Positions 26,643 to 62,425 of a stretch of DNA of 64,000 nucleotides are shown here, in pieces. The notes beneath the pieces are model-generated. The model was not told where the DNA came from. It made no database searches and saw only the letters and a list, made by a program, of their open reading frames with translations. The translations under genes and the position numbers were made by a program. Each line of letters begins with the position of its first letter. The stretch's first letter is position 1. Where the stretch lies: the IMG/VR virus record IMGVR_UViG_3300033121_002140, positions 1-64,000 of that record, one strand, 5' to 3'. Origin of the DNA: a virus (lineage: Duplodnaviria; Caudoviricetes).

Positions 26643-27593
26643 ATGGTCGTCTATAAGGTGACGCACCGCACAACGGGCTTGTGCTACGTCGGAAAGACGC
26701 GCGGTACGGTCGAGAGCAGGTGGCGGGCGCACGTCCGCGATGCGCGGCGGGGCTCGCGGACGCGTTTCCACGCGGCCATCCGCGAGCACGACGCCGATGC
26801 TTTCGATGTCGAACAGGTCGAGCAGTGCGCCGACGCTGGCGAGCTCGACCGTGCGGAACGCAGATGGATCGAGCTGCTGGGGACGACGGATCCTGCGCGC
26901 GGCTTCAACAGCACGACGGGCGGACAGAACGGCGCGCTATGCGAGACGTCGAGACGCAAGATCTCGGTCGCGCTATCGGGCAAGTCCAAGGACGAACGCC
27001 ACCGCGCGCAGCTCTCCCACGCGCAGTCCCAAAAGACGGGGCCCCTGAACAGCTTCTTCGGTCGCACGCACTCGGAGGAGACGAAGCGACGCATCGCGGA
27101 TTCGATGCGAGGTGAGCGCGGGCCCTGTTTCAATCGAACAGGAGAGCGCCACCCGATGTGGGGCACGCAGCACAGCGATGAGGCCCGCCAGAAGATGGCT
27201 GCGGCGCATGTAGGCAGGTCTCTCACCCACGAGCACGCGAGAAGCATCTCCGAGGGCCATGGTCGACGCAACGCTGCTCTGCACGAAAAACGGGCCAGGG
27301 CGCTTGAGCTCCTCGACGCAGGGCTGACACGACGGCAGGTGCGCGAGGAATTGGGCGTGACGCTAGGGTTCATTTACGGCGCGACGTCGCGCCGTAACAC
27401 TGCGCGTCGCGCCTCAGGCCTGCAGGCCAGCGGCGATGAACATGCGGGCGTTGTAGGGCCCGAAGCACCCGTCGAGCAGGGCCTGGGGAGGCACCCAGAC
27501 GACCCTGCCGGCCTCGGTCGTCCGGATGGGCCCCCTGCAGTCGTGCCAGTCGGCCTCGAAGGTCGTGGTGACGAAGCCGTCGTGCTCCTCTGA
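26643..27593 (+). CDS. GIY-YIG homing endonuclease with NUMOD3 repeats
   Basis: VVYKVT...YVGKT, RW..H, E..WI, GFNST; FFGRTHSEETK and MWGTQHSDEAR repeats; ATAGCTA 5 nt upstream. Confidence 0.9.
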   Translation: MVVYKVTHRTTGLCYVGKTRGTVESRWRAHVRDARRGSRTRFHAAIREHDADAFDVEQVEQCADAGELDRAERRWIELLGTTDPARGFNSTTGGQNGALCETSRRKISVALSGKSKDERHRAQLSHAQSQKTGPLNSFFGRTHSEETKRRIADSMRGERGPCFNRTGERHPMWGTQHSDEARQKMAAAHVGRSLTHEHARSISEGHGRRNAALHEKRARALELLDAGLTRRQVREELGVTLGFIYGATSRRNTARRASGLQASGDEHAGVVGPEAPVEQGLGRHPDDPAGLGRPDGPPAVVPVGLEGRGDEAVVLL

Positions 27594-27884
27594 CTCATAG
27601 ACGAACCGCAAGGCGCGCGGATCGACCGTGAGCCCAGTCTCCTCCAGCAGCTCGCGCGCGGCAGCCTCGGCCAGGTCTTCCCCGGGCTCCACCTTGCCGC
27701 CCGGACAGCCGAAGTCCGTGGGATCGTGCTTGCGTGAGACCGCGAGCACGCGGCCCATGTGCCTGATCAGCACGCAAGCCGCACGTTTTGACCCAGGTTC
27801 GTCGTTGCGATCTGTGACCTGCACGATGATCATCTCCTCCTCCAGGAGCCCCCGCACGGCGGCACGAAGGAGGTCTGACCTCAT
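27414..27884 (-). CDS. NUDIX hydrolase with LRxxVRxxLEE leader
   Basis: Nudix box GGKVEPGEDLAEAAARELLEETG. Confidence 0.93.
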   Translation of the reverse strand: MRSDLLRAAVRGLLEEEMIIVQVTDRNDEPGSKRAACVLIRHMGRVLAVSRKHDPTDFGCPGGKVEPGEDLAEAAARELLEETGLTVDPRALRFVYESEEHDGFVTTTFEADWHDCRGPIRTTEAGRVVWVPPQALLDGCFGPYNARMFIAAGLQA

Positions 27885-28276
27885 CGTGCGATTCCTCGGG
27901 TCATGTCCTCGCGGCGCGCCGCGAGCTCGCGCGTGACCTGGGTGGACAGGTCTGCTCGCACCAGGCCGATCACGCGGCCGTTGTCTGCCAGGGGCTTGAA
28001 GCGCGGCGGCTGCCCGTCCGGAGCCTCCGTGACGTTCGCCTCGGTGGCCTCCAGCACGTCCTTGACCGCGTCCACCACGTCCTCGCAGACGACGGCCGCG
28101 AGCTTCTGCTTGACCACGACGCCCAGCAACGGGCACGCGATCTGCCCGGCTGCGTCGACCGCTGCTCCTGCCAGCACGGGGTCGACCCTACCGTCGACGC
28201 AGCCCTGCAGGGTGCCGCAGGCGAGCGCGACCGCGAAGAAGGCCGCGTGCGCGGCCAGCCACCTCGAAAATCTCAT
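27881..28276 (-). CDS. lipoprotein
   Basis: signal with lipobox LQG-C; ATACCTA motif and GGGAGG RBS upstream. Confidence 0.7.
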   Translation of the reverse strand: MRFSRWLAAHAAFFAVALACGTLQGCVDGRVDPVLAGAAVDAAGQIACPLLGVVVKQKLAAVVCEDVVDAVKDVLEATEANVTEAPDGQPPRFKPLADNGRVIGLVRADLSTQVTRELAARREDMTRGIAR

Positions 28277-28394
28277 GTCGAAGACCTCCCATCGCTAGGT
28301 ATGGGGCGGTGCCATGACGGCCACAGCACGGTCGCGATCAGGTACAGCAGCCTGCCTGCCTCACGCGGGCACCTGCCCTTTTCGCAGGACTGGC

Positions 28395-28709: not shown

Positions 28710-28718
28710 GGTACGAAC

Positions 28719-28910
28719 CTACGCCTTTGGCGCGCACGCAGACACATCGCCGCGTGCGCGCCTGCGTGCCACGATCGACTTGGCCTCTTCCAGGCCCCAG
28801 TTGACCAGGCCCGTCGCCAGCGCGACCACGGCCGCGGTCAGGGCCGCGATGCCCACCTGACGGCGCTCGTCGGGCGTCAACCCGGCATCGTGATGCATGG
28901 GCACGATCAT
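28719..28910 (-). CDS. small single-TM membrane protein
   Basis: hydrophobic VGIAALTAAVVALATGLVNWG; ATGA overlap. Confidence 0.6.
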   Translation of the reverse strand: MIVPMHHDAGLTPDERRQVGIAALTAAVVALATGLVNWGLEEAKSIVARRRARGDVSACAPKA

Positions 28911-35547: not shown

Positions 35548-36146
35548 TAGATCACCTCGTCACATGACTGTAGCATGCTGTGCGCCGCCTGTTTCTTCTT
35601 GCCAGAGGAGATGTTTGCTCTGTGCTCTGCTGTCAACGCTCGACCCGTCAAGGCAACAGAGATCTTCGCTCTCACAGACGGATCAGTCATGACCTGCGTG
35701 CTTCCCATGCTGATCTTCCGTCGAGTTTCTCTGCTGAGCTTTCGTCCTATGGCAGCGGCACGCATCTTTGCTCGACTCTCTGCGCTCACTGCACGACCTC
35801 GCTTGGCGTCGCCGATCTTTTCGCGAGTCGCTTTTGAGTGTGCATATCCACACGTACCATCACCGCCGCTGGTCTCATTGTAGCCCTGGGTACCGTTGGC
35901 TCGTGTTGCAGCGATCCAATCTACCTCTGCTGCTTTTGCCTCGAGCTCAGTGTCGAATGTCTCAAGCAGGACGTGGATCCAGGCATCATCACCGTGCTTT
36001 CGAATCGCTCGGTGAAATGCTGTCGTCGAACCGCTTTTCGCAGCTGCTACGTGCATCTTCCAGCGAGCCATCATGTCACGGCTTGTCCAACCGATGTAGC
36101 GCTTTCCCGTCTTGATGCAGAGGTGACAGTAGACAGTAAATCTCAC
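35547..36146 (-). CDS. GIY-YIG homing endonuclease with NUMOD3 repeats
   Basis: TVYCHL...RYIGWT, RW..H, FHRAIRKHG, GYNETSGGDG, HSKATREKIG. Confidence 0.9.
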   Translation of the reverse strand: MRFTVYCHLCIKTGKRYIGWTSRDMMARWKMHVAAAKSGSTTAFHRAIRKHGDDAWIHVLLETFDTELEAKAAEVDWIAATRANGTQGYNETSGGDGTCGYAHSKATREKIGDAKRGRAVSAESRAKMRAAAIGRKLSRETRRKISMGSTQVMTDPSVRAKISVALTGRALTAEHRANISSGKKKQAAHSMLQSCDEVI

Positions 36147-37249
36147 AGTGCCTCGATGGTCCGCACAGCGTCGACGTATGCCTTGACGTAGGGATGGTCC
36201 TTGGGCAGGCCTGCCTTCAAGGCGGCCTCGGCCTGCGCGGTGAGGTTGGCCGCGTACACCTTCTTCATGGCGGCCCTGACGCGACGCAGGACCTCCTCCC
36301 GCGCGGCGTCGGCTTCCTGGCCCTGCAGGGCTCGCAGCTTGTCGAGCCCGGGCAGCCTGCGGCCCACGACCCCTTCCACGTCCTCGAAGCTGCGGGCCCT
36401 GAGCACCACCTTGGCCTTCGCGACCACGTCGCGTAGCGTCTTCTTGATCGCCGTCTGGCCGTCGTGGGCCAGACGGCGAGCGACGGGCGAATCCCGCAAC
36501 GCGGCCCGCACCTTCCTGCTCGTCAGCACCTGCGCGAGCGCGGGCCTCTTCTGTGCCTCCGCGTCCTCGCTGATGACATGACCCAGGAAGACCCCGCCCT
36601 CGAACGCCCACGTGTCCATGCCCGGGTCCTCACGGCGTGACCACTTGTCGCCGCTGCCTGACCCTCCGTGCCCGTACGTCTGCTTGACGCGGGCGACGAA
36701 GCGCTCGACGGCAGGGTTGCCGCCGCCGAGCACGTTGATGACGGCAAGCGCCGCACCGGGGGAACGCGCGACCATGCCCGCGCTCAGAAAGGCCCAGGGC
36801 GCGAACATGAACGCTGCCGCCATGACGTCGTTGCCCAGCAGCGCGCCCTTCGTGGCCCCATAGACGTCCGAGTAGCGCTGCCTGATCGCGTCCAGCCTGC
36901 GCTTTTCCTCGGCGAAGATGTCGGCGTAGTCGCTCGACAGCGCAGGCACCAGCGTCGTCGCGGCTGCCTCGAAGGCGACCTTGACGGCCGACTGTGCCCG
37001 GGCCGACAGCTCGGCGGTCTTACCCGCCGCGGTCTTCACGACGTCCGTGAAGGGCTTCACGAAGGTCGCATACAGCTTGTCGGGGCTGCCAAAGTGCATG
37101 CCGTACGGCATCTCACCCATGGAGGCGCCGTACAGGTCGCCCACGCCGCCATCGTCCTCGACGAGGCGCGGCTCCTTGGTGGACAGCGCATGTCCATGCC
37201 GGGTCGCGGTCTCGATGTTCTTGGCTGCCTCACGCAGGCGTCTAGCCAT
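36143..37249 (-). CDS. late-class hypothetical protein, possibly virion-associated
   Basis: CTAGTTA 4 nt upstream of ATG; LVED and ISED potential cleavage sites. Confidence 0.75.
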   Translation of the reverse strand: MARRLREAAKNIETATRHGHALSTKEPRLVEDDGGVGDLYGASMGEMPYGMHFGSPDKLYATFVKPFTDVVKTAAGKTAELSARAQSAVKVAFEAAATTLVPALSSDYADIFAEEKRRLDAIRQRYSDVYGATKGALLGNDVMAAAFMFAPWAFLSAGMVARSPGAALAVINVLGGGNPAVERFVARVKQTYGHGGSGSGDKWSRREDPGMDTWAFEGGVFLGHVISEDAEAQKRPALAQVLTSRKVRAALRDSPVARRLAHDGQTAIKKTLRDVVAKAKVVLRARSFEDVEGVVGRRLPGLDKLRALQGQEADAAREEVLRRVRAAMKKVYAANLTAQAEAALKAGLPKDHPYVKAYVDAVRTIEAL

Positions 37250-38080: not shown

Positions 38081-39136
38081 TTAAGCGTGGGCCCCGTCGA
38101 AGATGCGACGGACCCGTTCCAGCTGCTGGTCGTTGAGCCTGCGCAGGGCGCGCTCCTTGTCGAGGGCCAGGTCGCGCCCGGCCTTCTTGCTGACGTTGTC
38201 GGCCAGGCCCGTCTCGAACCCATGCAGGACCTGCGCGAGCATCTCGTCCCTGTCATACGCGCCCGCTGCGTCGAGCGTGTTGGCCAGGCCCACGATCCCG
38301 TGCGCGAGGTCGGCCACCGTGACGTTGTCGGGATCGAGGCCCGGATGCCGTCGCAGCACTGGGTCAGGCGTGTAGCCCGGGCCTAGCAGGTGCTCCGCGA
38401 TGTCGGCCAGGAAGGTCCTGAAGCTGGTCGACACGGTCCTGACGTCGACCCCCGTCCTGAACCGGGACGGGACGCGTTCCTTCCCGCGGTATCGTGCCAG
38501 CACGCCCTCTCCCCCGATCGACAGCGTCAGGAAGTCGCCCAGGGCCGCGTACAGGTTGCCCGTCACGTAGCCCTTGATGCCCCGCTCAGGCGTGTAGCGG
38601 CCTGCGGCCCACTCGGCACTGTGCGGGTGCGTGACCACCGTGTCCACCTGGACCAGGCCGCCGTCGGGCATGACGAGGATGACGCTGAGCGGGTCCGACC
38701 CTGAGCCGCCGGAGCGCTTTGTGCCCAGCGTCAGGTCCACGTCGACCCCCTCGGGCGACTCCTCGCGCAGGTACTTGGCCATGAGCTCCGTGTACCTGCG
38801 CAGCGACGCGGCCTGGCCCGCCCTGCGATCTCCCTTGGAGGCGTCCACGGGCAGCGACACGAGGTAATCGATGTCGCCGTAGGTCGCGTCGGGCCTGTCG
38901 ACCTCGTCAGCCGCCGCGTGGGTGGCAGAGCCTGAGGCGCGCACGGGTTGCACTGGCTCGGTGCCGTGCTCCTCGAGCCAGGCGTTCCATCCCGCCAAAA
39001 AGCGCTCGTAGGCACGTGAGGCCTGCCTGACCAGCGCAGGCGTGAGGTCGCGCCTGCGGTCGGCGGGCACCTTGAGCCCGCCCTCAAAGAGAGCACGACG
39101 GACGATGGCGCGGAGCGCGCCCAGCCTGATCTGCAT
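38081..39136 (-). CDS. Pol-beta-fold nucleotidyltransferase with LRxxVRxxLFE leader
   Basis: SGS...YGDIDYLV and VQVD acidic triad. Confidence 0.75.
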   Translation of the reverse strand: MQIRLGALRAIVRRALFEGGLKVPADRRRDLTPALVRQASRAYERFLAGWNAWLEEHGTEPVQPVRASGSATHAAADEVDRPDATYGDIDYLVSLPVDASKGDRRAGQAASLRRYTELMAKYLREESPEGVDVDLTLGTKRSGGSGSDPLSVILVMPDGGLVQVDTVVTHPHSAEWAAGRYTPERGIKGYVTGNLYAALGDFLTLSIGGEGVLARYRGKERVPSRFRTGVDVRTVSTSFRTFLADIAEHLLGPGYTPDPVLRRHPGLDPDNVTVADLAHGIVGLANTLDAAGAYDRDEMLAQVLHGFETGLADNVSKKAGRDLALDKERALRRLNDQQLERVRRIFDGAHA

Positions 39137-39184: not shown

Positions 39185-39192
39185 ATAGCTAG
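39185..39192. promoter_or_regulatory. bidirectional late-type motif (ATAGCTA on +, CTAGCTA on -)
   Basis: lies between divergent genes starting at 39136 (-) and 39198 (+). Confidence 0.55.
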
Positions 39193-39197: not shown

Positions 39198-39794
39198 ATG
39201 CGTGCGGACAGACCAAGGCGGATCGGGTTGGTGGCCATGAGCGCAAAGCCGTTCACGGCAGGCCATGACAGCATCATCCAGATGGCAGCGAGCGAGTGCG
39301 ACGAGGTGCTCGTGTTCGTGTCACTCGCGGACCGACGCCGGCCCGGTGAGTTCCCGATCATGGGCACTGACATGGCGACGATCTGGCGGGAACTGGTGGA
39401 ACCCGGCCTGCCCACGAACGTCACGATCGAATATGCCAGCAACCCGATGGCCAGGATCTGGGCGACCCTGGGCGCCGCGAACGAGTCGGGCTCGCCCGAC
39501 TCGTTCGCGATCTATGGGGACGAGCGCGACACCGCGGCACGCTTCGGTCCGGCAGCGCTCGCGAAGTATGCCAGCGGTCTGCAGGCCTCAGGCAGGATCT
39601 CGTTTCGGACGCCGCCCAGGATCACGTCAGGCACAGAGATGCGGAAGGCGCTGGCGGATGGGGACCTGGACGCGTTCAGGGCAGGCATGCCAGCCTGGTT
39701 GGACGCCGACCGGGCCTGGCAGGTCCTGCGGGCCCATCGCACGAACGAGGAACTCCTGCGGAGCTTCGTCAGGCGCTCGATAGCTCGCGCCTGA
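39198..39794 (+). CDS. HIGH-superfamily nucleotidyltransferase (cytidylyltransferase-like)
   Basis: KPFTAGH (HxGH variant), VLVFVS, ITSGTEMRKAL. Confidence 0.85.
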   Translation: MRADRPRRIGLVAMSAKPFTAGHDSIIQMAASECDEVLVFVSLADRRRPGEFPIMGTDMATIWRELVEPGLPTNVTIEYASNPMARIWATLGAANESGSPDSFAIYGDERDTAARFGPAALAKYASGLQASGRISFRTPPRITSGTEMRKALADGDLDAFRAGMPAWLDADRAWQVLRAHRTNEELLRSFVRRSIARA

Positions 39795-41838
39795 CGAAGG
39801 CCTCGAGGCGCTCGAGCGGCGCGCCCAGGGCATCGGGCCCACGTTCCTTCACGCGCTCCCTGAGCTTCTCGACGAGCTCCTCGGCCATCTGGTCGAGCTC
39901 GGATGCGAAGGTCTCCGACCTCCGCAATGCCGCCGCGAGCTCCTCGAAGCGTCGGAGGGCCTGGGCCCTGTGCCCAGGCCCCAGCAGGACAGAGACGAGC
40001 TCGTCGGGCCGGTCGGTCACGAGCTCACGCTCGACCGTGCGCCATGCCGTGTGACCGCCCTGCTTGTTGGGCCTCCGCGCCTGCACGACCCGGTGCAGGC
40101 CCCTGTCGGAGTCGACCACGTAGCGTTCGCGATCGAGCTCGCCCTGCTTTCCTGGGAACGCGCGCCCAGACGCATGACGTGCGATGACGTCCAACAGCAT
40201 GTTTCGGACCACACCCTTCACTGTCGAATATTCGGGATGACCCTTCACGGGTGAAGGCCCGTAGCGCGTCCAGCCTAGAAGCCCGACGTCGCCGACCATC
40301 GCGTCCACCTGGACCGCGCCGGACTCCAGCGGAAACGCGATGCTCACGATGTTGGAGCCCACCCTGCGCAGCTCGATGCCTGGGCGTGCAGCGACGAGCG
40401 CGGCGTACAGGCCTTCCCTGCCGCCCGCATGCTCCATCGCGAGGTCGACGTCGCCCATCGGGTCCTTCTTCCATGTCGTGCCGATGGGCGTGATCTTCAG
40501 GGCGCCTGCACGGACCAGGAGGCCTTCGATCTCTGGCCAGGCTGCCTGCAACCCTGCCCTCGTCACAGGCCCAACGTCTGAGAACGAGTGACCGCCCTCG
40601 GCCATCAGGCGCCGACGTGCCTCGACGAGCCCAGCTCCACCCTCGTGCGTGAAGAACCCGAGGATCCTGTTCATCGGTGCGAACGCACCCGTGAGCTTGT
40701 AAGGCCTGCCCTTGTGCATGAAGACGATGCCCTCGATCGGGCTGATGTCGTCCAGGCGCGTGAGCTTGTCCTGCACGGCAGCGAGGATGGCCTTCGCCTG
40801 GGGCGCGCGCGAGCGCCCTAGGGCCGTCATGGCCTTCGCGGTGGCAGCTCGAAGGCGCGCGGCCTCGGCCGAGGGATCGCTGACGAAGAGGGAGCTGACA
40901 CCCCTGAGCACGCCCACCGCGAACTGGCGCATCGTGCGCTCGAGCGGGGCCAACGCCTGTTCGACCAGCCTGCGCTCGTCATCCACCAGCGCCTTCGACG
41001 TGGCGTACATGTCAGGTGCCATCTTCTTGATGGCCGTCAGGGTTGGTGCTCCAGGCACGCCTGCGATCCTCGCTGCGAGCGCGGCATGCAGCGCGTCCGG
41101 AAGGGTCATGTTCGACTCTTCGTCCAAGATCGACTCGATCCTGCGGTGGACGTACTCGCCGATCGTGGCGCCGTCGTCCAAGCGGACCTGGGCCATGGCG
41201 GCATCGAGCCCGGACAGGGCCTGCGCCATCACAGTCCCGTCCACGAGGCGATGGAGCTCCACGGCGGCCCAGGGATGCAGCGTCCATCCCGTCTCACGGG
41301 TCCCGGCACGCATCGTGTCGATCCATCGCGCGAGCCGCGTGCCGCCCAGGCCTTCCTCCTTGATAGGCCGGCCGGTCGCAGGGTCGACGACGAAAACGGG
41401 CTCCCTGTGGAACACGACGTTGTTGCCGTCGTACCTGATCGTGTTCGGCGCCTCGGCGTACATCACCTCGATCGAGTACCACCTGTCGCCTGCCGGACCG
41501 AAGATGTCGATCCGAGCGTCGGCAGGCATGGCCCTCAGGCCGCGCTCAAGCGCGGCGAAGGCGCCTGTCAGCGCGGCCTCGATCACACCGCGGCCTGAGA
41601 ACCTGCGCGCCAAGGCGGGGGCGTCCATGCCGCCCCCCTTGATGTCGGACGAGTTGCGGGCAGCACGGACTCCGCCCGCTTTCTCGTTCCAGGTGAAGAC
41701 CAGGTTGACGCCGTCGGTCTTTTCGGACACGCCCTCAAGCCTGGCCTCCGCGATCGAGGTGACCACGTCCTTGAGGTCGTCGAAGGTCAGATCCCAGTCC
41801 TCGACCAGGTGAGACAGGTGTCCGCTGGCGCCGCCCAT
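39769..41838 (-). CDS. two-domain protein: ligase-like KxDG domain plus Pol-beta-fold nucleotidyltransferase
   Basis: GGASGHLSH, SEKTDGVN, IEGIVF...YKLTGAF; C-terminal IGTT...GDVDLA...VQVDAM. Confidence 0.75.
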   Translation of the reverse strand: MGGASGHLSHLVEDWDLTFDDLKDVVTSIAEARLEGVSEKTDGVNLVFTWNEKAGGVRAARNSSDIKGGGMDAPALARRFSGRGVIEAALTGAFAALERGLRAMPADARIDIFGPAGDRWYSIEVMYAEAPNTIRYDGNNVVFHREPVFVVDPATGRPIKEEGLGGTRLARWIDTMRAGTRETGWTLHPWAAVELHRLVDGTVMAQALSGLDAAMAQVRLDDGATIGEYVHRRIESILDEESNMTLPDALHAALAARIAGVPGAPTLTAIKKMAPDMYATSKALVDDERRLVEQALAPLERTMRQFAVGVLRGVSSLFVSDPSAEAARLRAATAKAMTALGRSRAPQAKAILAAVQDKLTRLDDISPIEGIVFMHKGRPYKLTGAFAPMNRILGFFTHEGGAGLVEARRRLMAEGGHSFSDVGPVTRAGLQAAWPEIEGLLVRAGALKITPIGTTWKKDPMGDVDLAMEHAGGREGLYAALVAARPGIELRRVGSNIVSIAFPLESGAVQVDAMVGDVGLLGWTRYGPSPVKGHPEYSTVKGVVRNMLLDVIARHASGRAFPGKQGELDRERYVVDSDRGLHRVVQARRPNKQGGHTAWRTVERELVTDRPDELVSVLLGPGHRAQALRRFEELAAALRRSETFASELDQMAEELVEKLRERVKERGPDALGAPLERLEAFVRRELSSA

Positions 41839-43777: not shown

Positions 43778-43798
43778 GACGATAGCTATGCAGCGTCC

Positions 43799-46853: not shown

Positions 46854-46886
46854 CGTCGGTAAGTATCGGGCGAGCGTCCGCGCGTG

Positions 46887-47234: not shown

Positions 47235-47896
47235 CAGGCACCCGTGGGCCCCGCGCCGGCGGCGGCCGGGGCCTGGAAGTCGGCCTCACGCTCGTCGTCG
47301 GTCAGCTCCGTGTCGATGCCGTGCTGGTCGGCGAGCGCCGCCTTGACAGCGTCGACCTCCTCAGGCTTTCGCCCCTTCTGCAGGAAGCCCAGGGCGCGCC
47401 GGGCGAGGGTCTGGCGCACGTCGATGACGGTGTCGAAGTTCTCGATCAGGCGGGCCACCATGCCCGCGAACGCGGCAGGATCGAACTCAGCGCCGCCCTC
47501 GTCGTCACCCACGTCGGCTGGGACCTGAGGCACGTCGTCGTCCCCCTCGTCTGCCTCACGCAGCAGGAAACGCCTCGTCATGCCCCTCAGGGAACCGTCG
47601 CGGCCCTCGGCATGGAGCCCCTTGCCAGAAGCCTCCTTCTCGAAACCGATGAGCTGGCGGTCCACCTGCGAGTCCAACGAAGAGCCGTCTGGCATGGAGG
47701 GCTGCTGCTTTCCGCCGGGTTCGTCCTCGTCGTCGCCGGCGTCCTTCTCATCCGTGTCGTCGACCGCGTCGTCGAACAGGTCGTCGCCTCCCTCGTCCTC
47801 GGCGCTGCCCTTTTCGTCCTTGTCCTCGTCCTCGGGTGCCTCGATCAACAGCGCGGCAGCGATGGTCCGGCGCAGCTCCCCCAGCCTGATCTTCAC
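47234..47896 (-). CDS. acidic late-class protein with LRRTIAAALLIE leader
   Basis: GTGA overlap; very acidic; GGAGG RBS. Confidence 0.75.
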   Translation of the reverse strand: MKIRLGELRRTIAAALLIEAPEDEDKDEKGSAEDEGGDDLFDDAVDDTDEKDAGDDEDEPGGKQQPSMPDGSSLDSQVDRQLIGFEKEASGKGLHAEGRDGSLRGMTRRFLLREADEGDDDVPQVPADVGDDEGGAEFDPAAFAGMVARLIENFDTVIDVRQTLARRALGFLQKGRKPEEVDAVKAALADQHGIDTELTDDEREADFQAPAAAGAGPTGA

Positions 47897-48627
47897 TTCA
47901 GTGCCTCCGCGATCTTTTCGGCCTTCGCCATGCGTTCCTCGACCACCTGCCAGTTGATCTCGCGCATCTGCGCGACCACATACGACTGACGGTCGGTCAT
48001 GTAGTCCCGGAAGTACGCGTGCGACCACACGTCGATCACGAGGACTGGGTACAGGCCCAGCATCACGTGCCCGTCATGTCCATCGATCACGGTGTTGACG
48101 TACCGCCTCAGGAAGGTGCTGTAGCCCATGACGACCCAGCCCTCCTGAGCGGCCATCGCGCATGCGATGAAGTCCTGCTGCCAGTCGTCGAACGTGCCCC
48201 AGTCCCTCTCCAGGCGCATGTAGGACTTGGTGTCGGAGTAGATCTGCGAGTGCGGGTCGAAGCAGTTGGCGAAGTAGAGATCATGCAGCCACACTGCGTT
48301 CGCGGAACGCGCCTCCGTGACCTTTAGGTCCCTGAAGGGCGACTTGTCCGGGCCCGAGCCCCCACGGTCCGCGGTGTCGAGCTCGGCGGACGCCTTGTTC
48401 AGGGCCTGCACGTAGCCCTCGTACAGCGCCTTGTGCGCGGCCTTGGTCTTGTCCGAGACCCGTTCCGACACCTGCGGGAACGTCTTCGCCTGCGCGACGT
48501 AGGACTCGTCCAGGCCTTGCGCCCGGGGAGCGACGCCCGCCTGCTGGAGCGACAGCTGCACGATCCTGTCGATGTTGAGGCCTGCCAGGGTCTGATCAGT
48601 CTTCGCCTCGCTCATCTTCATCAGCAT
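47893..48627 (-). CDS. Fe/Mn superoxide dismutase-like protein (atypical)
   Basis: H..LYEGY, LHDLYF, W..F, GWVV, IDVWSHAY (canonical DxWEHAY). Confidence 0.85.
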   Translation of the reverse strand: MLMKMSEAKTDQTLAGLNIDRIVQLSLQQAGVAPRAQGLDESYVAQAKTFPQVSERVSDKTKAAHKALYEGYVQALNKASAELDTADRGGSGPDKSPFRDLKVTEARSANAVWLHDLYFANCFDPHSQIYSDTKSYMRLERDWGTFDDWQQDFIACAMAAQEGWVVMGYSTFLRRYVNTVIDGHDGHVMLGLYPVLVIDVWSHAYFRDYMTDRQSYVVAQMREINWQVVEERMAKAEKIAEALK

Positions 48628-49256
48628 GACTCCTCTTTCTGAAGGTATCGCCAGGCGAAGCCTCCTGAGCTCCTGATGACACCACGCGCTGCGGCAGCCA
48701 CGGTAGTCTTTTCGAAGCCATCAGCCTGCACCGCAGTCACAGATGGATAAACTTGCAGCACAGCTCCCGTGGCAGGATCGCATCGTGCGACACGTTTGTG
48801 ATGAGCACGTCTACTTGCCTCGATGATCTTTTGGCGTTTTTCGGGAGCCAGCACAGCCATCGCACGTCGCACGTTTGTGCACGCTTCAACTGTGAACTTT
48901 CGGCCCCGGCGCGATTGCGACATCCGCTGCCGTGCTTCCAAGGAGAATTTTCGGCCAGTCATCACGCCGTCGCCACCGATCGTGCTATTGTAGCCCAGCT
49001 CGCCCATCGACCGCAGCCGTGCGATCCACTCACGTTCTGCGTGCTTGACCTGCTCAGGCGTGCCGCAGATCTCGAGCACCTCGTGCTTCCAGCATCCAGG
49101 ACCGTGCAGCGCGATGGCTCTGTGAAAATGACACTTGGAACCCTGCCTTGCAAGCTTGGCGTGACGCATCCAACGCCGCAGCATTGTGAACGACGTCATA
49201 CCGACGTACGACTTGCCATTGAGCACGTTCACGTGCCTGTACACGATGCAGGGCAT
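48621..49256 (-). CDS. GIY-YIG homing endonuclease with NUMOD3/NUMOD1-like tail
   Basis: IVYRHVN...YVGMT, RW..H, FHRAI, GYNSTIGGDG, YPSVTAV. Confidence 0.9.
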   Translation of the reverse strand: MPCIVYRHVNVLNGKSYVGMTSFTMLRRWMRHAKLARQGSKCHFHRAIALHGPGCWKHEVLEICGTPEQVKHAEREWIARLRSMGELGYNSTIGGDGVMTGRKFSLEARQRMSQSRRGRKFTVEACTNVRRAMAVLAPEKRQKIIEASRRAHHKRVARCDPATGAVLQVYPSVTAVQADGFEKTTVAAAARGVIRSSGGFAWRYLQKEESC

Positions 49257-49534
49257 CACGACAGCTCGTATTCTTGCTCGAGCTCTCCGTTGTGAACGAG
49301 GAACTTTTTGCCCTCGGGGGTACGCAGGATCGTGTCCTTGGTCCCCACCGAATCGACCGTGTAGAGCAGACCCGTCTTCTTGTGTCGCAGCTTCAGGCCT
49401 GCCGACAGCACGTTGCGCTGGCCGCCGTCCTTGGTGCCAAACACGACGTCGACGTCCTTGGCGAGCTCCGCCAGACGCCTGGCATGCTCCTCCTTGAACG
49501 CCTGGACGACGTCCGCCTCCGTCAGGGTCCTCAT
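49256..49534 (-). CDS. hypothetical phage protein (SH3-like C-terminus)
   Basis: GLKLRHKKTGLLYTVDSV; GGAGG RBS. Confidence 0.75.
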   Translation of the reverse strand: MRTLTEADVVQAFKEEHARRLAELAKDVDVVFGTKDGGQRNVLSAGLKLRHKKTGLLYTVDSVGTKDTILRTPEGKKFLVHNGELEQEYELS

Positions 49535-50013
49535 CGCCGCCTCCTGCCCTGCCCACGCAGGGCGTCGATGTCAGCGTAGGTGTCCTCGCGTGACTGTCCG
49601 GCGGCATGACCCGCGGCCCATGTCTCCGCTTCCCGCTCAGCCGCGTTCTCCGCGCTCCAGGGCTCGTCCGCGTCCGTCTCCCGGCGCCAGGGTCCAGGCG
49701 CGCCCGATCCTTTGTTCGGGTTCCAGTGCCTGTCATAGTAGGCCTTCGCGGACGCCTTGAGGTCATCCAGCCCAGCAGGCCTGACCTGCCGCACCTCGGC
49801 CGCAGGAGCGTCGGCATCGACGGGTTCGGCGACGCCGTTCTTGACGCCGCGGGCGTACGCCCGAGCCAGCTTCTCCGCGCTGTCTCCGCCGAAGACCCGG
49901 GGTTTGCCCGGCGTGCCGTCCTTTTCCGTGAACGTGACCTGCCAGGACGTCTCAGAGAGACGCATCAGCTCTCTTCGCACGAAAGACCGCAGCTCATTGA
50001 CCGACGATCGCAT
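49531..50013 (-). CDS. late-class protein with LRSFVRRELMRLSE leader
   Basis: ATAGTTA 6 nt upstream of ATG 50013. Confidence 0.7.
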   Translation of the reverse strand: MRSSVNELRSFVRRELMRLSETSWQVTFTEKDGTPGKPRVFGGDSAEKLARAYARGVKNGVAEPVDADAPAAEVRQVRPAGLDDLKASAKAYYDRHWNPNKGSGAPGPWRRETDADEPWSAENAAEREAETWAAGHAAGQSREDTYADIDALRGQGRRRR

Positions 50014-50022
50014 CGTCACTAA

Positions 50023-50796
50023 CTATGCGCGGGTCGCCCAGCCCGGTCGCTCAGGGTCCTCGCGCCACGGCCCAGTGCCCAGCAGCGAACCCCAGGCGGG
50101 TAGGTCCTGCCTGCCCTCCATCAAGAGCCTTGCGACAGCCAGGAACATGGCCTCGGCACGCTCAGGCTCCCAGGGCACGATGGGCAGGTCCTCATAGGGT
50201 GGGATCTTGGTGTGCGCGTAGCGGTGGCTGCCCGGTCCTGGGCCCATGACGTACATGAACTCTGTGCTGAGCATGCGCTTGTCGGCCAGCTTCACGTCGC
50301 CCGGCTCGTCGAGCCGCAGCCTGAAGGCCTTCCTGATGGTCCACATGGCACGGCGCTCGAAGTGCTTGTAGGCCTCGAACATGCCCGATACCTTGAGCGG
50401 CGCGGGTAGGTCCACCAGGTAGGCCTCGCTCGCGTCGTGCAGCAGACCCTCGAGCGCCAGGTCCTTGGGCAGGACCAGCGCGATCAGGACGGAGTGCTGC
50501 GCGACGCTGTAATGACGCTTGGTGTGGCCCGTGAACCTGCACTGGTTGGCCAACGCATGCGCGATGTCGTCGATCACAACCTCGACAGGATCAGGCCTGC
50601 ACGGATGGAAGGCCCGACCCGTGAAGGTCTGGATCCAGTCCATGCCATCGGTGACTGTGAGCTCGAATTGACGGCACCATGAGCACTTGCATGCGTGGCT
50701 CCTGTGCAGCGAGCCCACCTCGCACGGATCACCGCAGGACTCGCACCTGCCAAGGTCCTTGGGACACCAGGGACCTGCCGACATCGAGACGTTCAT
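50023..50796 (-). CDS. HD-domain 5'-deoxynucleotidase (YfbR-like, phage type)
   Basis: IQTFTG, DIAHALANQCRFTGH, YSVAQHS, LLHDASEAY..D. Confidence 0.9.
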   Translation of the reverse strand: MNVSMSAGPWCPKDLGRCESCGDPCEVGSLHRSHACKCSWCRQFELTVTDGMDWIQTFTGRAFHPCRPDPVEVVIDDIAHALANQCRFTGHTKRHYSVAQHSVLIALVLPKDLALEGLLHDASEAYLVDLPAPLKVSGMFEAYKHFERRAMWTIRKAFRLRLDEPGDVKLADKRMLSTEFMYVMGPGPGSHRYAHTKIPPYEDLPIVPWEPERAEAMFLAVARLLMEGRQDLPAWGSLLGTGPWREDPERPGWATRA

Positions 50797-54948: not shown

Positions 54949-54956
54949 ATACCTAT
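54949..54956. promoter_or_regulatory. bidirectional late-type motif (ATACCTA on +, ATAGGTA on -)
   Basis: lies in a 25-nt gap between divergent TS-like and GIY-YIG genes. Confidence 0.55.
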
Positions 54957-54963: not shown

Positions 54964-55683
54964 ATGGCGTACATCTACTGCATCACGAACAGGATCGATG
55001 GAAAGCGCTACGTCGGACAGACGGCCACGACATTATCCAGGCGTTGGAACGGCCACAAACAGTCTGCCAAGCGTCATACCAACGATTCACATCTTGCTCG
55101 CGCAATCCGTCTGCACGGTCATGACGCATTCATGATCGAACCGCTGCAAGAATGCCAAATCGATGAGCTCGACGAGCTCGAAAGATGGTGGATCGCGCAG
55201 TTGCGCACGCAAGATCCCAACGTCGGCTACAACCTGTCGCCAGGTGGCCTGGGGGGCAATAGAGGGCTGCGCCGCTCGGACGATGCAAGGGCTAAAATGC
55301 GTGCACGACACTGGGCACGCGACGCTAAGCGTCGAGACCAGGCGACCAGGCGGAACAGCGAATCGCACGTGGGGATCGAGATGGATCACGAGACTCGTGC
55401 CAAGATCTCGAGGAGTCTCGCAGGCCATGTTCGCAGCGAAACAACGAGGACACGCATCGGCGAGACAAAAAAGGGCTCAAGCAACCCGATGTGGGGCAAG
55501 CCCTCCAAAAGACGTCCTGTCGTCCAGTGCACACCTGGTTGGCAGCTTATTGCAGTCCACGGATCGATCGAAGCTGCTGCGAAGGCCGCAAACGTCTCGG
55601 CACCGACCATCCGGTCCGCTTGCGCCCGGGCCGTCATTACGGCGGGATCGCGCTGGTGTTTTCTTGAGGACGACCCTGTCTAA
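54964..55683 (+). CDS. GIY-YIG homing endonuclease with NUMOD3/NUMOD1-like tail
   Basis: YIYCITN...YVGQT, RW.GH, GYNLSPGG, NPMWGK, SIEAAAK. Confidence 0.92.
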   Translation: MAYIYCITNRIDGKRYVGQTATTLSRRWNGHKQSAKRHTNDSHLARAIRLHGHDAFMIEPLQECQIDELDELERWWIAQLRTQDPNVGYNLSPGGLGGNRGLRRSDDARAKMRARHWARDAKRRDQATRRNSESHVGIEMDHETRAKISRSLAGHVRSETTRTRIGETKKGSSNPMWGKPSKRRPVVQCTPGWQLIAVHGSIEAAAKAANVSAPTIRSACARAVITAGSRWCFLEDDPV

Positions 55684-56645: not shown

Positions 56646-56692
56646 GGCTCAAATTATCGCGCGCCATTGGCGGCTTGGGTCACGCCAGGTGG

Positions 56693-56917
56693 TCAGGCGA
56701 CGCTGGTCGCATGCGCTCGGAAGAAGTCGTACGCGTCCTCGTGGGAGACCTGCGCCGCGCTCGCGATGTAGGCCACCGCATCGTCATCCCCGTAACCCCG
56801 CGCCATCGCGTCGTCCAGGGCGACCGCCATCTCGCCCTCGTCAGCGGGCGTGACGCGTTCCATCTCTTCCCTGATCAGGTGCCGAAGTCGACGCACGGTG
56901 AGCATCATCGTCGTCAC
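56693..56917 (-). CDS. small protein with LRHLIREE leader
   Basis: leader motif; GAGG RBS. Confidence 0.7.
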   Translation of the reverse strand: MTTMMLTVRRLRHLIREEMERVTPADEGEMAVALDDAMARGYGDDDAVAYIASAAQVSHEDAYDFFRAHATSVA

Positions 56918-56922: not shown

Positions 56923-57321
56923 TCAGTGCATGCTGAGCAGCGCATCCGTCAGGGGCTGCCTGTACTGCTCGGCGTCGTCGACGTCGCGCCTGCGTGACAG
57001 GTGCGTGATCACAGCTGGCACGACCTCATGCTCCAGGAAGTCCTCGTAGAGGTCGTAACCTTGGGACTCCCACTCACGCCAGGCCTCCCTGAGGCGCTGG
57101 AGCAGGTCGCCGCCCATGTAGCCCAGGTCCGTGACCTCGTCCACGATGTGCTCAGGCACGTCCGCCTGGGTCATCGCGTGGCCCACCCATTCACGAAACT
57201 CGTTCCACGTCGAAGCCTCAGGCGATGTGGGAGGCGGCTTGTTGGGAGCCTTGCCCGCCTCCACCAGGCGAGCAGCCTCTTCCTTGATGATCTGCCTGAG
57301 CCGTCCGACCGCGATGCGCAT
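56923..57321 (-). CDS. acidic protein with LRQIIKEE leader
   Basis: ATACCTA 5 nt upstream of ATG. Confidence 0.75.
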   Translation of the reverse strand: MRIAVGRLRQIIKEEAARLVEAGKAPNKPPPTSPEASTWNEFREWVGHAMTQADVPEHIVDEVTDLGYMGGDLLQRLREAWREWESQGYDLYEDFLEHEVVPAVITHLSRRRDVDDAEQYRQPLTDALLSMH

Positions 57322-57333
57322 ATGGCTAGGTAT

Positions 57334-57891
57334 TCACAAGACCAGCGCGGCCCGCAGCTCCGTGATCTGACGCCCGAGGTCCTCGTCGTCCACCGTGAGC
57401 CGCGTCACCCTGCAGCCGGTCGTCTCGACGAACTCCCGGTAGAGACCGTCGATCTGCATCAGCCGCGCTGGCCCGAGCTCGTCCGGGAACCTGTCGTCCC
57501 TGATCCCGGCGTACGAGGTGCGGGTGCACAGGACCAGGTCGGCACCCAGGGCCGCGTACCTGGCGTCCGCGTGCCACACGGCCGCGTCGTCCCGAGCACG
57601 GCCCATCGCCCTCGAATACACCCACTCGCACGGATAGCCGCGGTCCTTGACCATGCTGGCGCCAGATGCCCGGAGAAACGATGCCAGGTACTCGTCGCCG
57701 TAACGGACCGTGCGTGCGAAGCGCGTCGGGTCGTCCTTGAAAGCGTCCCACTCGCGGTCGTATTTCCAGTATGGGATCCCGACCGCCGCCGACAACCCGC
57801 GCGCGATCTCGGTCTTGCCACATCGATCTGGTCCAACCATCACGATGATGCGCTGTTCACGGTTTTCTGAAGTACTCGAACGTCCGTTCAT
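57334..57891 (-). CDS. dNMP/thymidylate kinase-like P-loop kinase
   Basis: GPDRCGKT, DRGYPCEWVYS; start uncertain. Confidence 0.85.
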   Translation of the reverse strand: MNGRSSTSENREQRIIVMVGPDRCGKTEIARGLSAAVGIPYWKYDREWDAFKDDPTRFARTVRYGDEYLASFLRASGASMVKDRGYPCEWVYSRAMGRARDDAAVWHADARYAALGADLVLCTRTSYAGIRDDRFPDELGPARLMQIDGLYREFVETTGCRVTRLTVDDEDLGRQITELRAALVL

Positions 57892-58669
57892 CCCACTTCA
57901 CTCCTTCAACAGCAAGAAGCTCTTGGAACGAGAGCTTCGGAAAGTCGTCCTCGGTGACTACCCTGAACTCCAGTCCCCGCTCTGCGCAGTACGCCCGGGC
58001 GGCTTCGAACTTCGCCATGTTCTTAGGCGTCTTCGCCAATCTGCTCGGCTTCACCTCGAACAGCAACCCTTGCGATGGCACACCGAAGTCAGGTCGGTAG
58101 GTACCGCCCGACCAGCGAATCAGGTGTGCCTCGTAGTCTAGGTCGTGCTGCACGTCCAAACCCATCGAGCGTTCTGCATGCAAGAGGAATGAGAGCTCGA
58201 ACAAGCTACGGAAGAAGACACCCTTGTACCAGCCTTTGACGGACCGACCGCTGCGGGCATACACTTTCCCCCACGCAGGATTGTTCTCGCCTGAGACAGC
58301 CGCCGACGTCCGCCGAGAGATGTCAGCGGCACGTTCCTCGCCATAGATCTCCGCGTTCGTCTTGCCAGTGCGGTGCTGCGTCACGCGCTGTAGACCATGC
58401 ACATGGTCATGTCGACCGTGCATTGGATTCTTCTCACCGGACGTTGCCTTCGACATCGTCAGCTTGAATCGTCGCGTTCTCTCAGCACCTTCGACGGCAC
58501 CGAGCTTGGCTTCAAAGCGCTCCTGCACTGATCGACCACGCTGCCACGCATTTAGGCATGACACGCAGCAAAACCGCGGCAGCTGCTTTCGAGACGGCCA
58601 CACGGTCTTGACCGCGGTCTTTCCGCACTGCGGGTTCTGACACACGAACTCGTACGCGACGGGCGACAT
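57857..58669 (-). CDS. TnsA-like PD-(D/E)XK homing endonuclease with Zn finger and NUMOD3 repeats
   Basis: CQNPQC...FCCVSC; GEKNPMHG and GENNPAWG; FRSLFE...YRPDF...FEVKP...KFEAA. Confidence 0.85.
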   Translation of the reverse strand: MSPVAYEFVCQNPQCGKTAVKTVWPSRKQLPRFCCVSCLNAWQRGRSVQERFEAKLGAVEGAERTRRFKLTMSKATSGEKNPMHGRHDHVHGLQRVTQHRTGKTNAEIYGEERAADISRRTSAAVSGENNPAWGKVYARSGRSVKGWYKGVFFRSLFELSFLLHAERSMGLDVQHDLDYEAHLIRWSGGTYRPDFGVPSQGLLFEVKPSRLAKTPKNMAKFEAARAYCAERGLEFRVVTEDDFPKLSFQELLAVEGVKWDERTFEYFRKP

Positions 58670-58705: not shown

Positions 58706-59287
58706 CTATCCTGCCTTCAATCGCCAGTCATCACTCCGTCTCACCATGCCGATTTTTTTCACACGCACAGACTCCGTGGCCCACACCTCACCCGAGTCAC
58801 GAGAATCAGGCACGCAGTGCTTGAACAAGGCTTGCACGGCTGGATCTGCCTTGGCGCGCGTGATGTCAGCATCGTGCTGCCTCTGCGTCCACCGTCTCGA
58901 GCTCGTGACGTAGGGCCCGAAGTATGCTGGAAAGCGAGCATTGATGAACTTGAAGACGTCGAACTGCGCGATTTTCTTCGACGCGTGGCTGGGACACCGG
59001 ACGCGAGCGGGCTCGACCATGCCGGGCAGGTTGTCGACCGCGTAGACGTGGTACGCCTGTGCGAGCGTCTGCAGCCCATCGAGCGCGGCCTCGACGCTGG
59101 TCGCGAACGAGACGCGCGGCGTAAACCAGTCCTCGATGGGCATGCCTCGAAACTCGAGAGGATGCCTGGGAACACGTGGGACCAACACGACAGAAGGTCC
59201 CAGGTCTTTTTCCGAGAGGTGATAGTAGCTCTGGTCGCTGACTGCCTCGCGGATGAGGCTCCGGAGCCAACCCATCGAAACCTGCAT
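58706..59287 (-). CDS. protein with LRSLIRE leader, possible ADP-ribosyltransferase-like fold
   Basis: YYHLS...PRVP...ED.FTPRVSFATS; ATACTTG 6 nt upstream. Confidence 0.6.
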   Translation of the reverse strand: MQVSMGWLRSLIREAVSDQSYYHLSEKDLGPSVVLVPRVPRHPLEFRGMPIEDWFTPRVSFATSVEAALDGLQTLAQAYHVYAVDNLPGMVEPARVRCPSHASKKIAQFDVFKFINARFPAYFGPYVTSSRRWTQRQHDADITRAKADPAVQALFKHCVPDSRDSGEVWATESVRVKKIGMVRRSDDWRLKAG

Positions 59288-60466: not shown

Positions 60467-60807
60467 GACGCCGTCTCCAGGTAGGGCAAGATGTCAGTCG
60501 AATCGACGTCCCACACCATGAGGGTCTTAAAGGCACCCTCCACGTCGCCTTGGGCGTGCTGAAGGGCCTGTGGACCCTTTGGATGAGTCTCGACAGATGC
60601 CTGCATGAAGGCCGACAGCTCGGCCTCGCGCTCTGGGTCGATGGGCACCCACAGCCCAGGCGTCCTGCCGAGCGTGTGGCTCTCGAAGGCGGTTTGCTCC
60701 ATCAGGGCGTCGTCCTGCATCTGCCTCAACAGCGCGGCCTGCACCCCTGGGTCCATGGGCCGGGTCGCCCGGGGCTGCGGCACGAAAGAAGGCGTGTGGA
60801 CCCTCAC
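60463..60807 (-). CDS. hypothetical protein
   Basis: GTGA overlap with glycosyltransferase stop. Confidence 0.6.
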   Translation of the reverse strand: MRVHTPSFVPQPRATRPMDPGVQAALLRQMQDDALMEQTAFESHTLGRTPGLWVPIDPEREAELSAFMQASVETHPKGPQALQHAQGDVEGAFKTLMVWDVDSTDILPYLETAS

Positions 60808-62018
60808 GGCTCCAGCTCTTTCCGGGCCGCGGCCTCGATCATGTCGACCCGGTGCCCAGGCGAGAAGTCGGCCAACGCCCGCAGGGCACGTTCCTGCGCG
60901 GAGACCAGATGGTCGCGGTCCGCGGCCGACATGTCGGCCAGGTTTTTGACCTTCCGCACCACATCCTCGGGACCGTTCACCAGGAGCCCGCAGCCGTCGC
61001 CCACCTCACGCATGGGCAGGCTCTCGGCGGGCACCAGGGCGGGCACGCCCGCGGCGACCGCCTCCAGGTACCGCATCGTGATGTTGCCGTGTCTCGCGTA
61101 CTCGGGCTTCGTGATGTGACACACGGCCACGCTGTCGTTCAGGGTCCCGTACACGTCCCGAAACGGAAGGCGCGGCACGAAGGCTACGCCAGGATACGCC
61201 TGCAGCACCCCACGCGGGTGCTGCCGCTCGGGCGAGGGCGTGAGCCAGTTGCCGTGCACGGTCGTCTGAAGGCCCAGCCTTTCCCGGAGCTCCCGGGCAG
61301 GGCCGGCATAGTAGCGCACGAACTGGTCGTCACGCTCGTAGTTGTTGCCCACGTAGCGGTAGTGCACGGAGCCCTGGCGGGCCTTGTGGACCCTCGTAAA
61401 GTCGCTGCAGAAAGGCATGCGGACCCTGGGCCGCGTCAGCTCCCTAGGCCTGAGGCAGGGATCGCACACGGTCACCTTGGGCCACCGACGCTCGTCCTCC
61501 TCCGACACCTTCAGGTCCGTGTCGAGGACCACGATGGGCGTGCCCATGCGGGAATAGTGGTCCAGGAGCTCGACCTGGCGGTCCCAGTCGATCGTGGGCT
61601 TGCCCACGATCCGCCACCGCCATTCGACGAAGAGCACGTCGAGCTCGGGCAAGCCAGAACCCGCGCTGGAATCATCGACCTCGATCGGATAGCTGAGGAC
61701 GCACGGATCACCCGGCACGGGCGATGAGTCGATCCTGTAGTTTGGCACGGACCTGCCCTGTTCGAAGCAGGCCGCGATCATCGTGGTGCCTGCCTCACGG
61801 ATCGCGGCGGGCGTGCCTGCAAACCTGTTCAAGAATGCGTACCGCGTCTTCTCCCGCCTCTGCTGCAGCTGGATGACGCTGTGCCCCCTGCGCAGGAGCT
61901 CGTCCACCATCAGATGGCGCTCGCCGCGTAGGCCATCGGGCGTCTCGACCACGTGGCTGTCGCAGGGGCGCTCGAGAAAACCCCAGAACGAAACGCCACA
62001 ACGCAAAGACCGACTCAT
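60804..62018 (-). CDS. GT-B glycosyltransferase resembling T4 DNA beta-glucosyltransferase
   Basis: RYVGNNYER, RLPFRDV, ITKPEYARHGNITMRYLEAVAAG, LVNGPEDVVRKV match the BGT C-terminal pattern recalled from memory; AAGGAG RBS. Confidence 0.8.
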   Translation of the reverse strand: MSRSLRCGVSFWGFLERPCDSHVVETPDGLRGERHLMVDELLRRGHSVIQLQQRREKTRYAFLNRFAGTPAAIREAGTTMIAACFEQGRSVPNYRIDSSPVPGDPCVLSYPIEVDDSSAGSGLPELDVLFVEWRWRIVGKPTIDWDRQVELLDHYSRMGTPIVVLDTDLKVSEEDERRWPKVTVCDPCLRPRELTRPRVRMPFCSDFTRVHKARQGSVHYRYVGNNYERDDQFVRYYAGPARELRERLGLQTTVHGNWLTPSPERQHPRGVLQAYPGVAFVPRLPFRDVYGTLNDSVAVCHITKPEYARHGNITMRYLEAVAAGVPALVPAESLPMREVGDGCGLLVNGPEDVVRKVKNLADMSAADRDHLVSAQERALRALADFSPGHRVDMIEAAARKELEP

Positions 62019-62425
62019 AGGGGCTCCTTATACTCAAAAGGAGCTAGCATCGACACATGGCATGCATCTACTGCATCACCAACAAGACAAATGGAAAACG
62101 CTACGTGGGCAAAACGACAGGGTGTCCCGCAGAACGTTGGCGTGGGCACCCGGAGGCACAGCACGGCAGGCGCGGCATCGTTGTCCTGCAGCTTTCGTGC
62201 CAGGATGACGGCGGGCGAGCCGTCCTCGGCGCTGGAGGCATCTGACTGGGCACCCGGCAGCAGGCCTTCCTTGCCCAGGATGTCCACGAGCGACGCAGCG
62301 TCGTTCACGACGTGCCACAGCTCCACCATGGAGCCCGTGGGCACGAAGCGTGCCCATGTCGTTGGGTCTGTCGGATCGAGCGCCTCACTGAGAAAGGCCC
62401 TGACGAGGCAGCGCAGCTCGTACAT
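62015..62425 (-). CDS. truncated ART-like protein with LRCLVRAFLSE leader; C-terminus derived from antisense GIY-YIG relic
   Basis: LWHVV...LVDILGKEGLLP; CTATTTA 7 nt upstream; tail is antisense to 62057-62149. Confidence 0.55.
   Translation of the reverse strand: MYELRCLVRAFLSEALDPTDPTTWARFVPTGSMVELWHVVNDAASLVDILGKEGLLPGAQSDASSAEDGSPAVILARKLQDNDAAPAVLCLRVPTPTFCGTPCRFAHVAFSICLVGDAVDACHVSMLAPFEYKEPL
62023..62044. promoter_or_regulatory. 7-bp hairpin GCTCCTT-(8 nt)-AAGGAGC covering the glycosyltransferase RBS
   Basis: perfect inverted repeat; AAGGAG on both strands. Confidence 0.55.
62057..62149 (+). pseudogene. GIY-YIG endonuclease relic (first ~31 codons)
   Basis: MACIYCITNKTNGKRYVGKTTGCPAERWRGH closely matches the N-terminus at 54964, then homology stops. 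Confidence 0.8.

Follow-up and report, generated by a model that had tools for sequence, protein, structure and literature searches.

In bacteriophage T4, N-terminal propeptides of 10-19 residues target internal proteins to the scaffolding core and are removed by gp21; ten residues of IPIII are enough for the packaging of foreign proteins, targeting by this capsid targeting sequence (CTS) depends on residues 4 and 7 and processing on residues 8 and 10, and the internal proteins of T-even phages are diverse outside the CTS (PMC9026906, PMC3012670, PMC5694885, PMC9958956). T4 Alt and gp21 provide a precedent for C-terminal processing (PMC9026906), and gp22, gp67 and gp68 are broken down to peptides (PMC9958956). 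In the T4 record NC_000866, gp22, gp24 and gp21 open with short peptides ending in I-A-E, L-R-E and L-I-E, respectively. In phages phiKZ, 201phi2-1 and SPN3US many head proteins are cut after Glu by a diverged gp21 homologue, at S/A/G-x-E sites and mostly behind propeptides of more than 100 residues; conserved N-termini on diverged paralogues have been likened to the T4 CTS (PMC5694885). Here we describe a short helical tag at the ends of unrelated proteins encoded in a 64,000-nt window, the first 64 kb of a viral contig (IMG/VR record IMGVR_UViG_3300033121_002140; 81,961 bp; CheckV completeness ~24%) that is a fragment of an uncultured giant T4-related phage. Judging from its sequence and by analogy with T4, this tag is most likely (probability about 0.7) an expanded version of the T4-type capsid-targeting propeptide that loads a protein into the head and is then clipped.

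An earlier note on this DNA had quoted 13 peptides from late proteins and read them as packaging and cleavage signals. All 13 were located in the sequence, 12 of them beginning 3-10 residues past a plausible start codon, and the one quoted from the C-terminus of a HIGH-motif nucleotidyltransferase (NTase) is indeed formed by the final 14 residues of the plus-strand gene 39198-39794. The consensus of the tag is M-[KR]-[LI]-[TSR]-h-G-[QE]-L-[RK]-x-[IL]-[IV]-x-E (h, hydrophobic; x, any residue), an amphipathic helix that is basic and then acidic. The logo of 42 tags from three genomes reads M, K/R, L/I/V, T/S/R, h, G, Q/E, L, R/K, x, I/L, I/V, R/K/A, E, E/A, h. The anchor L is present in 38 tags and the R/K that follows it in all 42; I/V occupies position +4 in 38, and the initiator Met stands exactly 7 residues ahead of the anchor in 26. 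The (L/I/M)-x-E ending ascribed to the tag holds with Glu at +6 in 31 of the 42, but in the rest the hydrophobic-x-Glu lies ~4 residues (about one helical turn) further on. A short form, with 3-5 residues ahead of L-L-R, heads the NUDIX family and the family of gene 36143-37249.

At least 11 of the 13 examples are confirmed as copies of the tag, either because a profile trained on a different genome picks them out or because homologues conserve the peptide. A leave-one-out profile of just the 15-residue core placed 6 of the 11 withheld seeds at rank one or two within ~150,000 six-frame residues and did not distinguish the other 5. It was replaced by a more stringent profile that takes in the residues near the Met and was built solely from 8 N-termini of a complete relative (G005; 298 kb, 43% GC). 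It scored the proteins starting at 57321, 56908 and 59287 at 23.0, 17.4 and 8.0 bits, respectively, and one at contig position 79734, beyond the window, at 18 bits, against an interior maximum of 6.5 bits among 90,231 residues. The profile was then iterated three times with interior sequence as the control. The proteins starting at 39136, 47896, 50013 and contig position 71822 also rose above 8 bits (interior maximum 4.0), 15 tags were found in G005, and a second complete relative (G004; 369 kb, 56% GC) had ~20 N-termini above 7 bits (interior maximum 4.6 in 83,912 residues). Tag scores were matched by no interior sequence. As a background, 9 of 119 other proteins contain the loose pattern of the earlier note and 20 of 119 have an h-x-E that ends at residues 12-22, so that one or two weak cases could be due to chance. 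Copies outside the quoted list lie at contig positions 79734 (clear) and 71822 (weaker) and, in degenerate form, at 37249; gene 39769-41838 has an internal one, and the family of 49534 has a leader-like start.

After removal of the first 22 residues, the tagged proteins showed no significant mutual similarity by BLASTP, which argues that the tag does not stem from paralogy. The carriers are unrelated, as had been claimed, but three of the 13 examples (62425, 42796 and 11764) are unproven. Synonymous codons for the conserved L and R differ among tags, and the motif is kept in related loci of 35-62% GC (35-67% GC with our contig included); it is therefore not a DNA-level signal. A seven-residue stretch is identical in the leader at 50013 and the C-terminus of the 39198-39794 protein. 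DNA duplication as its origin was considered and rejected, the codons differing at 4 of the 7 positions. The occurrence on unrelated proteins, the existence of homologues with and without it, and the C-terminal and internal copies described below support the view that the tag is portable.

The boundary between tag and cargo was examined in the NTase of the minus-strand gene 38081-39136, whose 18-residue tag (nt 39083-39136; 19.9 bits with the iterated profile) ends in L-F-E and is followed by Gly-Gly. Among 120 listed homologues, the boundary was counted in the 113 with the conserved Gly-Gly. In 105 of these a Glu precedes Gly-Gly and in the other 8 the start Met does, and nothing else was found there; at P3 the 105 Glu homologues comprise 73 with L, 25 with I, 4 with V and 3 with M. 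Leaders can be as short as 4 or as long as 92 residues (typically 13-24), and the sequence past Gly-Gly is constant. These alignments support the view that the E/G-G boundary of the NTase family behaves like a processing site. In the AlphaFold2 model (mean predicted local distance difference test score 91.6) residues 1-20 fall below 50 and the tag helix is undocked. The best Foldseek match was weak (Pol lambda/PolX, E = 6e-4, template modelling score 0.33), and a G-S pair and three Asp residues (G69, S70, D88, D90 and D165) that are invariant in the family agree with membership in the Pol-beta NTase superfamily.

The helix is also found behind and between domains. The 39198-39794 product is a cytidylyltransferase-like HIGH-motif NTase (Pfam Citrate_ly_lig, 1.4e-6) that carries the helix in its last ~14 residues (nt 39750-39791); of 17 orthologues, 11 end in a similar helix of the L-L-R-x-Y-V type, which in most of them follows G-E, and 6 do without it. 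The minus-strand gene 39769-41838 encodes 689 residues that comprise a ligase-type K-x-D-G domain, a tag-like helix with an M-A-E/G-G junction (approximately residues 401-416, nt 40591-40638) and a second NTase domain. At the junction, five of five fused orthologues have h-h-x-E followed by G-G-H-A-F. Other relatives end at ~400 residues, with the second NTase domain missing at the locus in most, and many orthologues start with M-G-G (M-G-G-A-A-G-H-L) or with a short extension ending in E ahead of G-G. Taken together, the N-terminal, C-terminal and junction copies show that the helix is a module that can be placed before, after or between domains, with a Glu separating it from the cargo. The boundary predicts mature N-termini for the 38081-39136 NTase and for the second domain of the 39769-41838 product, and we propose that where the tag stands at a C-terminus or a domain junction one precursor would yield two enzymes.

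The tagged genes that follow lie on the minus strand. The NUDIX hydrolase of 27414-27884 (Pfam NUDIX 6.9e-18, residues 34-142) bears a short-form tag at approximately residues 1-17 (nt 27834-27884) that itself scores weakly in the profile, yet 89 of 119 homologues have [LIVM]-[RK]-x-x-[IVL]-x-E within the first 28 residues, and ~20 are tagless. The linker from tag to core is 14-67 residues long; many homologues have a long one with conserved G-N-L-Y and G-G-N-V-L-D-D-E motifs, which may represent a second propeptide module. The three proteins recovered in the window by the G005-only profile are an acidic one of 71 residues (56693-56908; ends I-R-E; 24.8 bits after iteration), one of 132 residues (56923-57321; ends I-K-E, with a second L-V-E ending at residue 21) and one of 193 residues (58706-59287; ends I-R-E; 25.9 bits after iteration), each with the tag at residues 1-14. 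A search with the 132-residue protein gave a chance-level match and nothing better, and a PDB sequence search with the 193-residue protein found zero relatives. In the 160-residue protein of 49531-50013 the tag spans residues 1-21 and ends in L-S-E (22.4 bits); its orthologue in one related locus (L015) has the tag and the h-x-E at the same boundary.

For several of the remaining genes conservation was followed in 19 related loci, reached through the homologue alignment of gene 45358-46584 and lying on viral contigs of 17-369 kb. The 45358-46584 product is an acidic protein of 408 residues tagged at approximately residues 1-20 (nt 46525-46584); its leader is kept down to 30% identity in homologues on 100-370 kb viral contigs. 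Its low-confidence AlphaFold2 model consists of helices and disordered linkers with helix 8-18 detached, and Foldseek against PDB returned zero fold matches. The 220-residue product of 47234-47896 is highly acidic (net charge -33), with an acidic tract like that of T4 gp67 (NC_000866). Its tag (residues 1-19, 12 bits) ends in L-I-E, and most of its orthologues found in the 19 loci begin with a tag. The 209-residue protein of 42939-43568, which has no Pfam or PHROG family, carries a variant tag ending in L-A-E (approximately residues 1-20) below the profile threshold; orthologues in 18 loci keep an N-terminal helix ending in V-I-x-E. An uncertain member is the 92-residue protein of 49256-49534, which has a leader-like N-terminus and a low profile score; its orthologues open with a conserved M-K-x-L-T-E ... 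I-M-R-E-E in 19 of 19 loci. The degenerate copy heads a 368-residue protein (36143-37249) that has L-V-E-D-D-G-G at residues 29-35; its orthologues (14 loci) have a short-form tag followed by E-D-D-G-G.

Relatives in which head genes could be found connect the tag with those genes. Peptidase_S77 scored above the Pfam cut-off in 4 of 5 relatives searched whole, the fifth being 63% complete. The G005 protease matches the PHROG head maturation protease (2e-49). From the terminase end, the G005 head module comprises the large terminase, a tagged gene of 106 residues, a 1042-residue gene in the portal position, a 285-residue gene, the protease, tagged genes of 137 and 81 residues, two paralogues, a 689-residue gene in the scaffold position (252353-254422, a candidate scaffold protein), a gp23-type capsid protein (PHROG, 9e-73) and, some genes further on, two more tagged genes (114 and 327 residues). 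Five of the 15 G005 tags fall within this 15-kb module, ~5% of the genome (binomial P roughly 5e-4, for a region chosen post hoc), and in G004 four tagged genes lie within ~9 kb of the protease. The nearest cultured relatives of the G005 capsid protein are in Flavobacterium phage immuto, Microcystis phage Mel-JY01, Rhodothermus phage RM378 and T4-like cyanophages. Phage immuto (vB_FspM_immuto) bears the tag on a protein of 252 residues (immuto35A_190), and a protein encoded between its portal and protease genes (immuto35A_198) has a tag-like start; the tag was not found in the head regions of cyanophage S-SSM4 and phage RM378.

The packaging and cleavage reading of the earlier note is therefore favored by the portability of the tag, its (L/I)-x-E ending, the protease of the relatives, the clustering in head modules and the NTase boundary. 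In the mechanism that we infer by analogy with T4, covering core binding, cleavage, retention in the virion and injection with the DNA alike, the amphipathic helix of ~14 residues would attach a protein to the scaffolding core while the prohead assembles, the hydrophobic-x-Glu at the end of the helix would let a protease of the T4 gp21 family clip the tag during maturation, and the clipped cargo would stay inside the head. We propose that, the helix being portable, this phage lineage attached it to many unrelated proteins. Several observations weigh against such a mechanism. A search of the contig, ~24% of the genome, found no Peptidase_S77 and no capsid or other head gene, and the tagged genes of the contig stand mostly amid nucleotide-metabolism genes, outside head genes. 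Those tagged families that were searched for were absent from cultured relatives. About a quarter of the tags lack Glu at +6, P3 of the Glu ahead of C-terminal copies is not hydrophobic throughout, and the head-module enrichment was judged after inspection of the data. Membership in the tag set is also unproven for the three examples at 62425, 42796 and 11764. The first is a 136-residue open reading frame (ORF; 62015-62425, minus strand) with an uncertain start codon, a tag-like start of 1.4 bits and an orthologue in none of the related loci. The second is a 317-residue protein (41843-42796, minus strand) with a weak tag-like start ending in L-V-E and no protein family (Pfam, PHROGs) or PDB relative; only its L015 orthologue has a comparable helix, ending in I-A-E.

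The Glu boundary indicates processing rather than targeting, and the tag could be a propeptide that the protease removes and that has no targeting role, either keeping enzymes inactive until maturation or serving as an assembly helix of core or scaffold that is later degraded. The acidic 47234-47896 protein, a candidate prohead core protein, would fit the latter in its resemblance to T4 core protein gp67, since gp22, gp67 and gp68 are degraded in T4 (PMC9958956). We nevertheless regard this explanation as unlikely for the tag as a whole. One and the same helix is carried, at either terminus, by small proteins as well as by enzymes with several different folds, which suits an address better than an inhibitor, and the equivalent T4 peptide is sufficient for encapsidation (PMC9026906).

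Little likelihood also attaches to an uncleaved interaction module for something other than the capsid (a partner such as the phage chaperonin, a membrane or a nucleic acid, or else oligomerisation). The basic-then-acidic amphipathic helix, the position of most tagged genes of the contig outside any head module and the GroEL-like protein encoded at 14266-15912 would agree with it, but it leaves unexplained the strict Glu ahead of Gly-Gly with the start Met as its sole alternative, the fixed distance from the initiator Met and the clustering by protease, portal and capsid genes in relatives. Very improbable is a chance likeness among N-termini that are rich in Leu, Arg and Glu (the genome having 67% GC), or a nucleotide signal at leaderless mRNA starts: the background rates given above and a promoter-like octamer 4-5 nt ahead of the ATG of many tagged genes speak for it, but it is contradicted for the core set (and possible for 62425, 42796 and 11764 only), as a profile trained at 43% GC finds the tags of this contig above all interior sequence and the motif persists through synonymous codon changes and differing base composition.

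The rare octamer, ATA-N-[C/T]-T-[A/T]-N, occurs in 21 copies on both strands of the contig, 11 of them 4-7 nt ahead of an ORF ATG. Approximate positions in the window include 50018-50025, 57326-57333, 56650-56657, 46858-46865 and 43782-43789 on the minus strand and 26631-26638, 39185-39192 and 54949-54956 on the plus strand; it stands 5 nt ahead of the ATG at 50013 and 4 nt ahead of that at 57321, and G005 has ATATTTAT at the same position before the ATG. The octamer looks like a T4-late-type promoter, whose nearness to the start codon would make the mRNAs leaderless or nearly so. The reported co-occurrence of the tag with a late motif stands in so far as 3-5 tagged genes have the octamer immediately in front of them and two more belong to operons that begin with it, but it also precedes homing endonucleases and the sugar epimerase. 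Two GIY-YIG/NUMOD3 homing-endonuclease genes (26643-27593 and 54964-55683, plus strand) lie on the strand opposite to their neighbours, and a TnsA-like/NUMOD3 endonuclease gene is found at 57857-58669 (minus strand); each of the three is preceded by the octamer.

The minus strand carries nearly all genes from 13.7 kb on, and the identifiable genes of the fragment belong to replication and nucleotide metabolism. Besides the GroEL-like protein they include an AAA ATPase, a 5'-3' exonuclease, an endolysin, a thymidine kinase, a thymidylate-synthase homologue, the sugar epimerase, two NUDIX proteins, a carbon-nitrogen hydrolase and a Sod_Fe_C protein. The last (47893-48627, minus strand), encoded within the syntenic block that is rich in tags, contains the C-terminal domain of Fe/Mn superoxide dismutases (5e-20) and is kept in 19 of 19 related loci with up to 57% identity. 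Synteny of that block (~34-56 kb) extends to 18-19 of the 19 loci. Positions 1-8000 have 73-74% GC (60-68% across the remaining contig) and contain runs of small overlapping ORFs, described in the earlier note as SH3/KOW-like paralogues. Megablast with 12 kb and tblastn with three tagged proteins gave zero matches in 50,697 phage records, one metagenome scan returned solely a 1.4-kb fragment, and most tagged proteins were without a family in Pfam and PHROGs.

As to the payload proposed earlier, NUDIX, Pol-beta-like NTase, HIGH-motif NTase and a ligase-NTase fusion were identifiable, but the nuclease and ADP-ribosyltransferase-like cargo was not found. Some tagged proteins, the acidic 47234-47896 protein being one example, resemble components of the prohead core and may belong there instead of being injected enzymes. 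If the tag works as in T4, the proteins inside the virion, injected ones included, could be catalogued for uncultured jumbo phages directly from their sequences; these proteins are the first to act in infection, and annotation usually misses them. A tentative and rather speculative extension is that the tag is a readable address, working at either end and at junctions, that predicts the packaged and probably injected proteome of an uncultured T4-related jumbo clade. The kit would here consist of a NUDIX hydrolase, Pol-beta-type and HIGH-type nucleotidyltransferases and a ligase-transferase precursor cut in two, delivered with the DNA so that within seconds of infection they would act on RNA of the host, on nucleotides or on defence signals. 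Likewise, if the tag works as in T4, the three-protein trick of T4 would have grown into a general enzyme-carrying cargo system, and phage engineering in laboratory strains would gain natural packaging tags usable at either terminus.

Our literature search found the T4 and phiKZ-type work and no paper on the present tag; the window adds the E/G-G boundary statistics, the C-terminal and internal copies and a high-GC sublineage. By its features the closest known system is the T4 CTS, as found on IPI, IPII, IPIII and Alt, together with the propeptides of gp22, gp24 and gp21. Both are N-terminal peptides of 10-20 residues that start with M-K, end in hydrophobic-x-Glu and sit on unrelated proteins, and both go with a gp23-type capsid protein and a Peptidase_S77 protease, here in the relatives. 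The present tag differs in being longer (at least 14 residues) with its own consensus around L-R-x-I-I-x-E, in occurring on 15-20 or more genes per genome compared with a handful in T4, and in sitting on recognizable enzymes (NUDIX and two kinds of nucleotidyltransferase) as well as at C-termini and a domain junction; a peptide of this length is too short to show homology to the CTS, and its function is putative. The phiKZ-type propeptide does not fit, because P3 was L, I, V or M and never S, A or G in the 105 NTase homologues and because the tag is short, with a shared sequence. In Ralstonia phage RsoM2USA, a single annotated genome, the gene just after a protease-like gene (L042 18414-18728) opens with another conserved leader, M-D-I-T-R-L-K-H-L-A-G-V, which resembles the present tag in being short, N-terminal and near the head protease and differs from it in sequence. 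The comparison of these leaders suggests that T4-related lineages each have their own tag.

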